Below are positions 4,842 through 64,000 of a stretch of 64,000 nt of DNA, in pieces. A program made the position numbers and the translations under genes. Below the pieces are notes generated by a model. The model made no database searches. It worked only from the letters and a program-made list of their open reading frames with translations, and was not told the origin of the DNA. Source of the stretch: a virus; IMG/VR virus record IMGVR_UViG_3300042563_002443. One strand, written 5' to 3'. Positions within the stretch are counted from its first letter, which is position 1; the number at the start of each line of letters is the position of its first letter.

Positions 4842-5531
4842 ATGACAAGAAAACATCTAGAAACAGTTGCCCCTGGATATGCGAACGGTATATCATTGCA
4901 ATTAGCAGTAAAGCAAACTTTAGAAGGTCCTGACGCTCAATTAACTCAGCAAGAAAAACAACAAATAATTGATAACGCTGCATATCATTACGGTTTATTT
5001 TTAACGGCACTAGGAGTATCTTGGGAATCAGATCCAAATTCATCTAATACTCCTAATCGAGTTGCAAAAGCATATGTAAACGATTTATGGAAAGGCAGAT
5101 ATGAACCAATGTCAGACATTACTTCATTTCCAAGTGATGGGTATGACGGAATTGTATTCGAAGGCGGTATTCCATTAACATCAATGTGTAGCCATCATCA
5201 CCAAACCATTTCCGGAAAAGTTCATGTTGCATATATTCCAGCAGAAAATGGAAATGTAGTTGGATTAAGTAAAATTAATCGAGTAGTAGAACATTTCGGC
5301 AGACGCGGAGCTATACAAGAACAATTAACTGTAGCAATACAACATGCAATTGATGAACTTATAGAAGATAACAAAGGTGTTGCTGTAATGATTGAAGCAA
5401 CTCATAATTGTGTATCTTGTAGGGGAGTAAAACATATAGGCGCTTCAATGAAGACCGCAAAATTATCCGGAGCCTTTTTAGATGATGGAAATGCTAGGTC
5501 TGAATTTTATCAATTTGTAAAAGGTTATTAA
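4842..5531 (+). CDS. folE: GTP cyclohydrolase I
   Basis: TPNRVAK, SMCSHH, GLSKINR, QEQLT, HNCVSCRG. Confidence 0.95.
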   Translation: MTRKHLETVAPGYANGISLQLAVKQTLEGPDAQLTQQEKQQIIDNAAYHYGLFLTALGVSWESDPNSSNTPNRVAKAYVNDLWKGRYEPMSDITSFPSDGYDGIVFEGGIPLTSMCSHHHQTISGKVHVAYIPAENGNVVGLSKINRVVEHFGRRGAIQEQLTVAIQHAIDELIEDNKGVAVMIEATHNCVSCRGVKHIGASMKTAKLSGAFLDDGNARSEFYQFVKGY

Positions 5532-6664: not shown

Positions 6665-7438
6665 ATGAATAAAAGAATAGAAGATTACAACAAGACACTA
6701 CCAATTCTAGAACTATACCGCTGTATACAGAGTGAAGGTTCAAGATTTGGACGTCCAACAATCGCAGTAAGAACTACCGGATGTACTCACCGATGCTTTT
6801 TTGGTGAAGGAGGGTGGTGCGACAGCTGGTACACAAGTATTCATCCGGAAAAAGGAACATTTACGTTCCAGGACATTATTAACATTTATGATGAGAACCC
6901 ACACATTAAAGAAATGATGTTGACGGGTGGATCACCCACAATGCATCCAGCATTGGTAAACGAACTAACACACTTTGCACATGAAAGAGATATACTCATT
7001 ACTATTGAAACTGAAGGTAGCCATTTCGTACCTACCGACTATCCTATTGGCCTTATATCTCTCAGTCCAAAGTTTGGTAATTCTGTACCCGTACTTGGTG
7101 CTGTTACGCCTCAAGGAGCGATTGTGGATCAAAGAATGATTGATCAACATAACAAGTTTAGAATGAAGCTTGCTACAATGAGCCAGATGATTCACTTCCA
7201 TACAGATTACCATTTTAAACCAGTATGGGACGGAACGGACAAGAATCTACAAGAAATTGAAAACATTCGCACTCTACTTAATATCCCAAAAGACAAAACA
7301 TATATCATGCCCGCAGGAGATACTAGAGAAACTCTTGTAGAGATGTATCCACTCGTATTCGATATGTGTGCTGAGAAGGGATATAACATGACCGGCAGAG
7401 ACCATATAATTGCATTTGACACTAAACGAGGAGTATAA
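6665..7438 (+). CDS. queE: 7-carboxy-7-deazaguanine synthase (radical SAM)
   Basis: IQSEG, RTTGCTHRC...WCDSWY, TGGSP, IETEG, SLSPK. Confidence 0.9.
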   Translation: MNKRIEDYNKTLPILELYRCIQSEGSRFGRPTIAVRTTGCTHRCFFGEGGWCDSWYTSIHPEKGTFTFQDIINIYDENPHIKEMMLTGGSPTMHPALVNELTHFAHERDILITIETEGSHFVPTDYPIGLISLSPKFGNSVPVLGAVTPQGAIVDQRMIDQHNKFRMKLATMSQMIHFHTDYHFKPVWDGTDKNLQEIENIRTLLNIPKDKTYIMPAGDTRETLVEMYPLVFDMCAEKGYNMTGRDHIIAFDTKRGV

Positions 7439-16371: not shown

Positions 16372-17298
16372 ATGTACGGACAACAAGAAAATACACTTTG
16401 GACAGAATCATTCCGTCCTAACACATTAGAAGGATATATCGGTAATGAACATATCATCGAAAAAGTTAAAATATTTATTGCCAATGGTGATGTGCCGCAT
16501 CTATTATTTTACGGCTCGGCAGGAACCGGTAAAACTACATTGGCAAAGATTATTGCAAATAGCGTCGATGCTGATCTAATGTATATTAATGCATCAGATG
16601 AAAACTCAGTTGATGCAGTTAGAGATAAAATTAAACGTTATGCATCAACAGTAGGATTTAAACGTTGGAAAATCATTATTCTAGATGAAGCAGATTATTT
16701 GACACCAAATGCCCAAGCAGCTCTTCGTAACTTGATGGAAACATATAGCAAAACAACACGTTTCATTTTAACATGCAATTATGTTGAAAAGATTATCGAT
16801 CCAATTCAATCACGTTGTCAAACATTTGCTATTATGCCTCCCAACAAAACAGATGTAGCAAAGCGACTAGTATCAGTATTAGAAGAAAAACAAGTGCAGT
16901 ATGACATCAAAGATATTGCAGCAATCATTAATGCATCATATCCAGATATTCGTAGAGCAATTAATACAGCTCAAAGTTGTGTAATTGAAAATCGATTAAC
17001 ATTGGATAAGGCAAGTGCAATACAAGCAAATTACATGACCGAAGTACTTGAAATGCTTAAGAATGCTAAAGACAAAAAAGTTGCATTCACTAACATTAGA
17101 CAATGCATTGCTGATAGCAAAGTTAGAGACTTTACTCCAATGTATACTTTCTTGTATGATAATTTGGATGAATTTGCTCACGGCCACATTGCTCCATGCA
17201 TTTTGATTATTGCAGAATCGCAATTTAAAGATGCTAGCGTGGTTGATAAAGAAATTAATATAATGGCAATGTTTGTAAACATACTAGGAGAAATTTAA
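16372..17298 (+). CDS. clamp loader ATPase subunit (RFC small / gp44-like)
   Basis: WTESFRP, GSAGTGKTT, NASD, LDEAD, QSRC. Confidence 0.93.
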   Translation: MYGQQENTLWTESFRPNTLEGYIGNEHIIEKVKIFIANGDVPHLLFYGSAGTGKTTLAKIIANSVDADLMYINASDENSVDAVRDKIKRYASTVGFKRWKIIILDEADYLTPNAQAALRNLMETYSKTTRFILTCNYVEKIIDPIQSRCQTFAIMPPNKTDVAKRLVSVLEEKQVQYDIKDIAAIINASYPDIRRAINTAQSCVIENRLTLDKASAIQANYMTEVLEMLKNAKDKKVAFTNIRQCIADSKVRDFTPMYTFLYDNLDEFAHGHIAPCILIIAESQFKDASVVDKEINIMAMFVNILGEI

Positions 17299-17302
17299 AA
17301 TA

Positions 17303-17518
17303 ATGTCGATATCGTATCACAAAAGCATGGTAACTGTTATATTTAAAACATCTAATAGAGCTAATGCTAAAACAAAAATAAAAACGTTTCGCAACAAATC
17401 AATTGATGATATTTTATCGGCTAAACGAATAATAGGAATTCCAGAGACTTCAATTATTTTGGAATTAGGAATCGGCAAAGAATTAGAATATCAATACAGA
17501 AAACGATATAAATTATAA
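17303..17518 (+). CDS. hypothetical protein
   Basis: Basic ORF inside the clamp-loader operon. Confidence 0.6.
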   Translation: MSISYHKSMVTVIFKTSNRANAKTKIKTFRNKSIDDILSAKRIIGIPETSIILELGIGKELEYQYRKRYKL

Positions 17519-17991
17519 TGGCAAAGCAAAAAGTTATTAAATCAGCTAATACTATTAAAGCGGCAACATTGTTTGATTTTATTGATGGTGTTACTCATAA
17601 AAAGAAAGAATGGTCTGCCTGGACTGATATGGATCAAAAAGCATTTAGTCCATTCATGACAAATCGATTCTTATCAATGCGTATGGAGCTTACGGAACTT
17701 ATTAATGAGTTTCAAACATATACAATTGGATTATTACGGCCACAAGAAACTTATCGATTGTATTATGATTTATTGCCTACTAACAAAACATATGCAAAAT
17801 ACATAAAAGGCAAATCCGAAGATAAATTCGATAAAGCATTAGTTGCTCAAATTGCAGAACATTATCAAATTAGTTTGTATGAAGCTGCAGATTACGTGGA
17901 ATTAATGGATACGGCTGAATGTGAACGAATCTTAACGTTATATGGATATAGTGATGGCGACAAGAAAAAATTATTAAAAGGAATCAAATGA
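17518..17991 (+). CDS. clamp loader subunit (T4 gp62-like)
   Basis: LFDFI, FSPFMTNRFLS, AEHYQIS..EAADY pattern; position. Confidence 0.7.
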   Translation: MAKQKVIKSANTIKAATLFDFIDGVTHKKKEWSAWTDMDQKAFSPFMTNRFLSMRMELTELINEFQTYTIGLLRPQETYRLYYDLLPTNKTYAKYIKGKSEDKFDKALVAQIAEHYQISLYEAADYVELMDTAECERILTLYGYSDGDKKKLLKGIK

Positions 17992-52616: not shown

Positions 52617-54247
<1,631 letters not shown>

Positions 54248-54248
<1 letters not shown>

Positions 54249-62631: not shown

Positions 62632-62775
62632 ATGAATCAACGAACAATTGCAATACATATCACAGCATTTACAGCGCTGATACTATGTTTAATACTAATA
62701 CCCAATCCCATAATGTATCTAATAGGATGTTGGCAATTAGGATCATGGATCGGCTATTTAACAGAAAAATTATGA
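62632..62775 (+). CDS. 47-aa membrane protein (not in the ORF track)
   Basis: MNQRTIAIHITAFTALILCLILIP...; ATGA overlap with the next gene. Confidence 0.5.
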   Translation: MNQRTIAIHITAFTALILCLILIPNPIMYLIGCWQLGSWIGYLTEKL

Positions 62776-63149
62776 AACTAGAAGTATTTACAGAAATCCT
62801 AAATAGACTTAGGAAACAATCAGACAAGGAACATGCATTGTATGTATTAGATATAGACACTATTAATTTCTCAGATAATTATACCTCAGTGATAAACATT
62901 TTATTAGAGGTGTACTATGGTAAGGAGGGAACAGATTGGATTTATTGGTATCTATATGAGAGAGACCCTGTTGGAACAATTGACCAAGCAACAGACAAAG
63001 ATGGTAATGCAATTTGTTATGATGACAAATCTTTGTGGGAAGAAGTAGAGCAGTGCAGGTTGGAGAACAATGATGAGTATGAGCTACCTGTTAAACTAAC
63101 AGATGAAGAAAGACAAGAAGTATTAAACATGATAAAAAATGGAATGTAA
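62772..63149 (+). CDS. hypothetical protein
   Basis: Likely start at ATG 62772; GTDWIYWYLYE, DKDGNAIC. Confidence 0.65.
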   Translation: MKLEVFTEILNRLRKQSDKEHALYVLDIDTINFSDNYTSVINILLEVYYGKEGTDWIYWYLYERDPVGTIDQATDKDGNAICYDDKSLWEEVEQCRLENNDEYELPVKLTDEERQEVLNMIKNGM

Positions 63150-63226
63150 CTAATATGTTAGCTATTAATACCTATTTGTCACAAATTTAGCTAATATATG
63201 GGACAGTTTAATTAAATAAAAAAGAT

Positions 63227-63412
63227 ATGAAACAAACAGCAGTAGAATGGTTGGTTGAGCAAATGAAATTAGATGAATTATTTAATGCAGATTATTTTAT
63301 TGAACAAGCAAAAGAAATGGAGAAGGAGCAGATAATGGATGCTTTTAATGGTGAGCCACATTGTGATGGAGATGGTGATAGATACTACAACGAAACCTTT
63401 AAATCAGAATAA
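63227..63412 (+). CDS. TAVEWL-array mini-gene 1
   Basis: MKQTAVEWL-V1-EQAKEMEKEQI-V2-YYNETFKSE. Confidence 0.85.
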   Translation: MKQTAVEWLVEQMKLDELFNADYFIEQAKEMEKEQIMDAFNGEPHCDGDGDRYYNETFKSE

Positions 63413-63413
63413 G

Positions 63414-63635
63414 ATGACAGCAGTAGAATGGTTGATAGAAGAATTAAGAGGAGCTCATGTCAAAGGAGATTTTATCTTTAATGGAGTTATAACTTCTGAA
63501 TTGATTGAACAAGCCAAAGAAATGGAGAAGGAGCAGATTACTGAAGCACACACATTTGGCTATGTTATAGGAGGTGGTAAGGGAGATTTATATAATCCTG
63601 AGCAATACTACAATGAAACCTTTAAATCAGAATAA
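63414..63635 (+). CDS. TAVEWL-array mini-gene 2
   Basis: True start ATG 63414 (MTAVEWL), 1 nt after the previous stop. Confidence 0.85.
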   Translation: MTAVEWLIEELRGAHVKGDFIFNGVITSELIEQAKEMEKEQITEAHTFGYVIGGGKGDLYNPEQYYNETFKSE

Positions 63636-63636
63636 G

Positions 63637-63885
63637 ATGAAACAAACAGCAGTAGAATGGTTGGAAGAACAACAAGCACATCTATTTAATCAATTAGAAA
63701 TAAATGAAATTGAAATATCTGAGTATAAATATTATTTAGATTTAATACTTAATCAAGCCAAAGAAATGGAAAAGGAGCAGATGAAAGATGCATTTGTAGA
63801 ATGTTGGAAATCAAATGTGCCTGATGGAATAGAGTGTAAATTAGATGCTGAACAATACTACAACGAAACCTTTAAATCAGAATAA
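63637..63885 (+). CDS. TAVEWL-array mini-gene 3
   Basis: True start ATG 63637 (MKQTAVEWL). Confidence 0.85.
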   Translation: MKQTAVEWLEEQQAHLFNQLEINEIEISEYKYYLDLILNQAKEMEKEQMKDAFVECWKSNVPDGIECKLDAEQYYNETFKSE

Positions 63886-63886
63886 G

Positions 63887-64000
63887 ATGAAAAAAACAGC
63901 AGTAGAATGGTTGATTGGTAGATTTCATTATGAAGGATTTATTGGTACTTATTGCAGTGAAGAGCAAATAAAATCTAAAAGACAAATAATGATTGAAATA
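63887..64000 (+). CDS. TAVEWL-array mini-gene 4, 3'-partial
   Basis: MKKTAVEWLIGRFHYEG... runs off the window. Confidence 0.8.
   Translation, partial: MKKTAVEWLIGRFHYEGFIGTYCSEEQIKSKRQIMIEI

Follow-up and report, generated by a model that had tools for sequence, protein, structure and literature searches.

A phage array of head-to-tail small acidic genes, probably shuffled by homologous recombination at three constant coding blocks

The end of the 64,000-nucleotide viral sequence analysed here (hereafter the window) raises the question of how small genes that are nearly identical in some stretches and unrelated in others came to stand in a row. Four open reading frames (ORFs) lie head-to-tail on the + strand at 63227-64000, as read both from the sequence and from the ORF list, and at the unit joints the motif TAAGATG provides a stop codon, a single G and the next ATG. 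The first unit, U1 (63227-63412; 61 aa, net charge -10), consists of an N block, a variable segment V1a, a middle block, a second variable segment V2a and a C block. U2 (63414-63635; 73 aa, net charge -8) carries V1b and V2b, and U3 (63637-63885; 82 aa, net charge -11) carries V1c and V2c. U4 (63887-64000) is cut by the window end, and its 38 visible aa comprise the N block and V1d. All four units are on the + strand.

The constant parts recur as DNA, always on the + strand. The 18-nt N block (handle 1) is present in four exact copies (63236-63253, 63417-63434, 63646-63663 and 63896-63913), against 0.03 expected in shuffled sequences. U2 begins with M-T-A-V, with no K-Q, and its N block accordingly stands about three codons earlier relative to the ATG. 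A direct-repeat search placed the middle block (handle 2) at 63299-63333 in U1, 63504-63538 in U2 and 63754-63782 in U3. The C block forms, with the stop, the one-base spacer and the next start, a junction cassette (handle 3) at 63383-63416, 63606-63639 and 63856-63889. The repeat search of the array returned four copies of the junction/N-block family and three of the middle-block family, and detected no similarity over the V1 and V2 stretches between the repeat blocks. ORF list and TAAGATG joints thus agree with the original prediction of at least four head-to-tail genes spaced by one nucleotide, and the repeat search, with the four exact N blocks, agrees with its description of near-identical DNA blocks around two unrelated variable segments.

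The array had also been predicted to run off the window, and here the outcome was mixed. U4 is indeed cut at the window edge, but a long continuation is improbable by analogy with a related contig, L198. There, a U4-type unit of 91 aa, identical to the window's U4 fragment at 113 of 114 nt, is followed by non-coding DNA with a hairpin. Because this U4-type unit precedes non-coding DNA, the window array probably ends at four units, with little beyond. A pattern specific to U4 matched 11 other viral contigs, and the U3-to-U4 junction pattern itself had no match among metagenome contigs.

Reading frame and substitution pattern both indicate that the units are protein-coding. Intervals from an N block to the next C block were located by DNA pattern alone, without ORF calling. 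The length was a multiple of three and the corresponding frame free of stops in 123 of 124 distinct intervals, and the other two frames were open in none of the 124. Selection on the encoded protein was visible even in the variable segments, where pN/pS was 0.37 over 55 independent pairs of diverged recurrent segments. These comparisons uphold the predicted protein-coding nature of the repeat units.

AlphaFold, used with a family alignment, predicted three-helix bundles for U1 (pLDDT 87.7, pTM 0.72) and for U3 (pLDDT 88.4, pTM 0.74). In these models helix 1 starts with the N block, helix 2 contains the middle block and helix 3 is made of the C block. The hairpin of helices 1 and 2 owes its turn and its distal part to V1, and is lengthened by the long V1 of U3; V2 makes up the end of helix 2 and the loop ahead of helix 3. 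The earlier idea of a helical scaffold displaying variable loops is borne out at the level of the models, in which the blocks fall in helices and V1 and V2 at the hairpin tip and loop; a constant scaffold with variable tips therefore holds as a predicted architecture. Foldseek searches against the PDB gave no match, VIA-align wide gave a best Z of 4.8, corresponding to generic helical similarity, and the ESM Atlas returned uncharacterised viral clusters only.

To what family the units belong was examined with a profile built from 60 of them. The profile search retrieved 9,745 representatives of clusters at 50% identity; the E-value was 1e-10 or better for 2,574. At 90% identity the family comprises at least 7,995 clusters, nearly all of which are singletons, unnamed and without a Pfam domain. 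With the window units as queries, nothing reached the cut-off in Pfam and nothing significant was found in PHROGs (best E-value 0.006). Precomputed Pfam annotation was blank for all 120 relatives listed, and a literature search for the unit motifs found nothing relevant. With about 10,000 clusters at 50% identity, this is among the larger unnamed small-protein families of freshwater phages.

Members of the family are acidic, with a median pI of 4.7. On 81 viral contigs fetched by the junction pattern there were one to five members per locus, arrays of two to five being common, and some family ORFs in this sample were fused two-domain forms. Among prokaryote assemblies the family occurred on only 15 contigs of metagenome-assembled genomes (MAGs), assigned among others to Flavobacteriia, Sphingobacteriales, Chitinophagia, Sediminibacterium and Emticicia; it was otherwise found in uncultured freshwater viruses. 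Since these MAG contigs are mostly from freshwater Bacteroidota, their distribution suggests Bacteroidota as the host phylum.

Every large ORF of the window lies on the + strand; recognised among their products are a DnaB-type helicase, ribonucleotide reductase, a family-B DNA polymerase, a clamp loader and an exonuclease, together with GTP cyclohydrolase, QueE, an endolysin, GroEL, thymidylate synthase and DNA ligase. By virtue of this set of replication, nucleotide and lysis genes, the window is part of a large phage; a complete relative genome measures 122 kb. Megablast, blastn and tblastn of the region against deposited phages gave no match.

The array is preceded on the + strand by a 125-aa gene (62772-63149) with no assigned function and no Pfam match, which occupies the same place in L061, L012 and L200/L201. 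A 77-nt leader (63150-63226, + strand), containing a 12-nt inverted repeat (63153-63164 / 63188-63199), lies upstream of U1. It is 100% conserved in L012 and may regulate the array or contain its promoter. A scan of the region for sigma-70-like sites, which does not cover Bacteroidota-type promoters, gave 6 sites against 9.4 +/- 3.4 in shuffles, none of them at the junctions, and no terminator-like site was detected in the region. Recurrent neighbours in array loci were a DnaA_C HTH protein, DUF7695 and uncharacterised proteins. CpG counts showed this dinucleotide to be absent from both the array and the 125-aa gene.

If the blocks serve as DNA, their synonymous positions should vary less than the protein requires. 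Among 90 distinct units of a first sample, synonymous positions in the blocks hardly varied. Since this sample had been chosen by exact match to the C block, the test was repeated on a codon-unbiased sample of 85 new units recovered with degenerate peptide patterns. The result was the same: threonine was encoded by ACA in 82/85 new units (background 0.41), alanine by GCA in 79/82 and valine by GTA in 76/82. In the middle block, alanine was GCC in 68/83 (background 0.11, p about 2e-49), glutamine CAG in 64/81 (background 0.30) and lysine AAG in 54/80 (background 0.33). In several places the fixed codons are thus locally rare ones (GCC 0.11, CAG 0.30, AAG 0.33, ACC 0.15). Identity at third positions was 0.80 in blocks versus 0.48 in the other aligned columns.

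Two control families from the same loci, a DnaA_C-type HTH protein (29 genes) and a 61-aa protein (10 genes), had top-codon shares of 0.58 and 0.70 at conserved residues, with no column at or above 0.9, compared with a mean share of 0.84 and 7/18 columns at or above 0.9 in the unit family. Even where V1 and V2 were both unrelated, units had an exact word in common, with a median length of 19 nt (interquartile range 15-24, maximum 40). The peptide-pattern sample mitigates the selection bias of the exact-pattern sample without removing it, and the sampled loci are related. Synonymous-site conservation, proposed earlier as a check on the constant blocks, was thus found in both samples and in neither control family, supporting the view that block DNA is conserved beyond the needs of the protein. 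Part of this freeze may have other causes, since a gene's first codons are covered by the N block and the C block stands just ahead of the following start codon.

If the blocks are sites of exchange, variable segments should be found with more than one partner. The 175 distinct units pooled, which are not phylogenetically independent, fell into 153 V1 and 139 V2 clusters. Variable segments had a median pairwise nucleotide identity of 0.56, which is background for this composition, and ranged from 12 to 37 aa for V1 and from 13 to 40 aa for V2. More than one V1 partner was found for 17/20 recurrent V2 clusters (up to six partners), and more than one V2 partner for 13/19 recurrent V1 clusters. 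Each complete unit of the window had one half recombined elsewhere. V2a of U1 is joined to V1a in the window, to another V1 in L061 and to V1d in L184, and V1a is joined to V2b in L198. V2b of U2 has five different V1 partners and V1b three different V2 partners, while V2c of U3 occurs with three different V1s, including other V1s in L024 and L030. V1d of U4 was present in 12 other contigs with six different V2s, one of them the window's own V2a.

Close relatives differ in unit content, and recurrent halves change partners, which is the reassortment that the original prediction called for; variable segments at background identity are likewise not what ordinary diverged paralogues would show. 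Arrays could in principle have arisen by tandem duplication of one unit. This origin was ruled out: none of 61 within-array unit pairs shared a variable segment. Because no such pair does so, the arrays are collections of different cassettes and not recent duplications.

Comparison with close relatives located the breakpoints. L061 was 100% identical to the window from the middle block of U1 through the end of U3, only about 65% identical over V1a, and diverged after the last junction. In L062, 100% identity began exactly at the middle block of U2, and L012 was 100% identical through U1, with divergence right after TAAGATG. Since the gene upstream of the array in L061 and L062 is only about 85-95% identical to that of the window, the cassettes appear to have been exchanged after divergence of the backbones. 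In nine neighbourhoods, taken from different samples, the U3 cassette differed at 0/249 nt; one of the nine is a 208 kb contig with unrelated flanking genes.

A crossover within a gene was resolved most finely in L198. The unit before U3 in this contig is a chimera of the first 83 nt of U1 and the last 132 nt of U2. The crossover can be placed within 11 nt (63299-63309 / 63504-63514) where the middle block begins; an interval this short is below the usual minimal homology, yet it lies inside a 35-nt block with a single mismatch. Such a chimera is what unequal exchange would be expected to yield when two neighbouring units pair at their middle blocks. Crossovers between relatives thus map to the blocks and reassort V1, V2 and whole units, in line with the proposed role of the blocks as recombination handles. 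This evidence is wholly comparative and comes from metagenome assemblies. Assembly chimeras are an unlikely source of the identical cassettes, because typical reads extend beyond repeats of 20-35 nt and because the cassettes are identical in many independent samples.

The junction is not specific to the unit family. Its 19-nt sequence was present in 117 copies in the first sample, and at 63 of these a family member was followed by an unrelated gene starting at the junction ATG. Among the products of these unrelated genes are zinc-ribbon proteins of DUF7695, small membrane proteins and HTH proteins of the DnaA_C type. About 20 copies end non-family ORFs or sit in frames that stay open for no more than 2-5 codons. 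RNA folding of three junctions and one middle block gave z-scores of -0.3 to 0.2 relative to shuffles, and no attC-like inverted repeats were detected at the junctions. The junction therefore behaves as a DNA-level joint and start context common to a region of small genes.

Taken together, these results make it probable that the locus is an operon-like array of coupled acidic three-helix-bundle genes, shuffled by homologous recombination at three blocks. The units would be co-transcribed from the 77-nt leader and, given the coupling of stop, one base and start, would be translated by re-initiation at TAAGATG. The blocks would serve both as code for helices and as stretches of identity, typically 15-25 and up to 40 nt long, between otherwise unrelated units. 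Within these stretches, phages that are related or infect the same cell would recombine homologously, as would neighbouring units of a single array. Crossovers in the junction and N block would swap, delete or insert whole units and those in the middle block would yield chimeric genes, and the same exchange would keep the blocks homogeneous. The population would thereby hold a combinatorial pool of V1 and V2 segments, from which each phage carries one to five units. The pathway may be general homology-dependent recombination, of host or phage, acting on 15-40 nt of identity. Identity of this length (median 19 nt) is near the minimal homology for RecA or phage-annealase exchange.

Other explanations of the same pattern have to be set against this one. 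The most serious, though improbable, is that the blocks are constant mainly for another nucleic-acid function, such as a start cassette, a constraint on initiation or a site for a regulator or the ribosome, and that exchange is a by-product. It would explain why 63 unrelated genes follow the junction, why some copies sit in frames with only 2-5 open codons, and why junction RNA is unstructured (z about 0), as expected of an initiation region; moreover, the purine-rich middle block holds AAGGAG, which is Shine-Dalgarno-like and is followed by an in-frame ATG in U1 and U3. That ATG, however, is not conserved, the family consensus being isoleucine, and Bacteroidota largely do without Shine-Dalgarno pairing. 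A nucleic-acid function would also account for the freeze and not for pervasive reassortment, and it is compatible with the blocks acting as crossover sites as well. Very unlikely, in turn, is the view that the units are ordinary diverged paralogues, whose motifs are the protein core and whose nucleotide identity comes from codon preference or recent ancestry. It is true that the helix segments encoded by the blocks carry hydrophobic residues of core type, and the product looks like a normal small helical protein under purifying selection. Yet several of the frozen codons are locally rare, and similarly diverged control families in the same loci show no freeze. Segments of variable length and background identity between near-identical blocks are impossible by uniform point divergence. 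Recurrent halves mostly change partners, and tracts of 100% identity end at blocks; the paralogue view fits such chimeras poorly.

Two dedicated mechanisms of diversification can be judged on the same data. A dedicated system of site-specific cassettes (integron-like, or a mobile mini-element), with the blocks as recognition sites of a specialised recombinase, would suit the promoterless-looking cassettes, the conserved junction of about 35 nt and the recurrence of the same cassette in many backbones. Its probability is slight all the same: the junctions lack attC-like inverted repeats, the recurrent neighbours examined include no integrase or recombinase, and three different blocks, all direct and coding and one of them mid-gene, are all used. 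Targeted hypermutation of the variable segments, for instance by a diversity-generating retroelement (DGR), is all but excluded; what speaks for it is the constant/variable/constant layout in a phage. A DGR leaves adenine-specific substitutions, whereas the V segments here are unalignable and of unequal length; identical V segments recur in different phages, and the array contains no template repeat.

Shuffling by homologous recombination at the three blocks can be compared with known systems, of which the nearest described is that of the promoter-early stem-loops (PeSLs) of T4-type phages, where modular shuffling takes place in hyperplastic regions (Arbiol et al. 2010, PMC2839356; Comeau et al. 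2014, PMC4122927). As these papers present the PeSLs, the likeness is threefold. Short conserved repeats stand among small, mostly uncharacterised, non-essential-looking genes; close relatives differ by indels and replacements whose ends lie at the motif, as is the case here for L061, L062, L012 and L198; and homologous recombination exchanges otherwise unrelated sequences. By the same accounts, PeSLs are intergenic motifs of promoter plus terminator, whereas the handles described here lie inside ORFs and the junction has a single non-coding base. Three of four defining PeSL features, namely intergenic location, a sigma-70-like promoter and a stem-loop or terminator, were accordingly not found at the handles. 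Recombination at the middle handle would also yield chimeric proteins, which is not the outcome given for PeSLs, and the phage lineage and likely host phylum of the published cases differ from those here.

A more general precedent is the short conserved boundary sequence, or linker, model of phage mosaicism, in which, according to the summary in PMC3029335, the boundary sequences are usually invisible. The array shares with that model, as summarised there, general homologous recombination at short sequences shared by module boundaries. It departs from it in that the boundaries are explicit, family-wide, synonymously frozen and found within genes as well.

Integrons are alike in having tandem small cassettes, a conserved junction element and content that varies among relatives. 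The array differs in its lack of attC inverted repeats, in its coding handles and in exchange that takes place also within a gene. A tyrosine-recombinase integrase was not detected in ten scanned neighbour proteins or in Pfam marks around U3 in ten contexts. Internal-protein (ip) genes of T4-type phages have a conserved N-terminal capsid-targeting sequence, which the prohead protease cleaves in proteins destined for the head, and hypervariable bodies; they lie in plastic regions, and at least one of their members, IPI*, is an anti-restriction protein. The resemblance to our units is one of gene architecture: in both, a small phage gene is constant in a 5' coding segment and variable elsewhere. 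The units have three constant blocks in place of one, and their fold and sequence are unrelated to those of ip proteins. In Borrelia vls and Neisseria pilS, segmental gene conversion moves sequence from silent donors to one expression site in a single genome. Constant and variable segments alternate there too, and recombination in the constant ones yields mosaics; each unit of the array, in contrast, is a complete, apparently expressed gene, and exchange is between phage genomes. Modular shuffling itself is thus known, and what is new here is its coding, three-handle and intragenic form in a very large unnamed family. The analogy with a repeat-spacer array, also part of the original prediction, is geometric only.

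What the products do can be addressed only by way of conjecture. Because they are small, acidic, helical and hypervariable proteins encoded in a plastic region beside replication genes, our guess, offered tentatively, is that they interact with the host and that the variable hairpin tip and loop set target specificity. In the units sampled, V1 and V2 segments already number more than 100 each. It is conceivable, if rather doubtful, that second-order selection keeps the blocks as handles and that the pool is a population-level library, on an acidic scaffold, for neutralising variable host factors such as defence proteins, much as had been suggested for this array. From the assemblies compared, diversification is apparent between phage genomes of a population and not as a mechanism within one genome. 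Were the library reading true, the family would be a homologous-recombination counterpart of DGRs and of antigenic-variation cassettes, operating inside genes and across phages.

The boundary sequences in this family are explicit, short, synonymously frozen and used both between and within genes, and public metagenomes contain thousands of natural recombinants, so that the boundary-sequence model can be put to direct test. Viewed as a rapidly reshuffled, modular set of helical acidic proteins, the family is also a natural place to seek host-takeover or counter-defence functions in Bacteroidota phages. Finally, the constant blocks are conserved DNA targets across many phages and could as such matter for CRISPR targeting and for probe design.

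Detection of the 19-nt junction cassette, which includes the stop codon, a one-base spacer and the next start, was not confined to genes of the array family. It also terminated unrelated small ORFs, providing them with a short common C-terminal tail, and some copies lay in frames open for just 2-5 codons (unrelated ORFs and short frames together: loci L005, L013, L028, L034, L043, L065, L067, L037 and L052). Since such copies occur on unrelated ORFs and in frames this short, the sequences suggest that the junction has been copied from gene to gene as DNA. Junctions may also be lost as boundaries: two family domains were found fused in single proteins at L075 (146 aa), at L030 and L045 (140 aa) and in P0121 (225 aa), and these two-domain proteins may have arisen via stop loss at a junction.

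The array and the gene preceding it (62772-64000) were nearly free of CpG, with only two in 1,229 nt, both within the C block. The observed/expected ratio was 0.07, against 0.84 in the window, and GATC was absent, against 3.05 per kb. The CpG depletion was family-wide. In 175 pooled units from loci L001-L181, 336 CpGs were observed, whereas the same proteins written with background codon usage would contain 854 ± 24; TpG and CpA were over-represented across these units. The scarcity of CpG may be the signature of a shared cassette pool, or that of restriction avoidance.

Within the genes, the middle block carries AAGGAG, a Shine-Dalgarno-like run (within 63318-63338 in U1, the first gene of the array, and within 63770-63785 in U3, the third). 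An in-frame ATG follows 3-6 nt later in U1 and U3 but is absent from U2, and this ATG was not conserved across the family. Upstream of U1, the 77-nt leader contains a 12-nt inverted repeat (63153-63164 and 63188-63199), with arms 92% complementary and spaced 23 nt, which might act as an operator or fold into a regulatory hairpin; the leader was 100% conserved at the related locus L012.

A second type of array end was identified at loci L182-L192, L032, L195 and L198, where the C-terminal tail of the units differs and an ATGA overlap joins them to the following gene. The product of that gene is often 118-135 aa long and carries a Bac_DnaA_C helix-turn-helix domain (39.2 bits, against a cut-off of 31.5). 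At L198, a more G+C-rich stretch follows the U4-type unit (979-1100) and begins with a short hairpin; neither a called gene, for ∼700 nt past the array, nor a tRNA was found in this stretch. In G001, a complete 122 kb relative, a second cluster of N-block matches (17120-17932) lies ∼6.5 kb from the main array, indicating that a single genome can carry more than one array.

Elsewhere in the window, the phage encodes two genes of the 7-deazaguanine pathway, a GTP cyclohydrolase (4842-5531) and a QueE-like radical SAM enzyme (6665-7438), whose presence suggests that its DNA is modified. It also encodes a full-length GroEL (52635-54248; PHROG E-value 3.5e-176).
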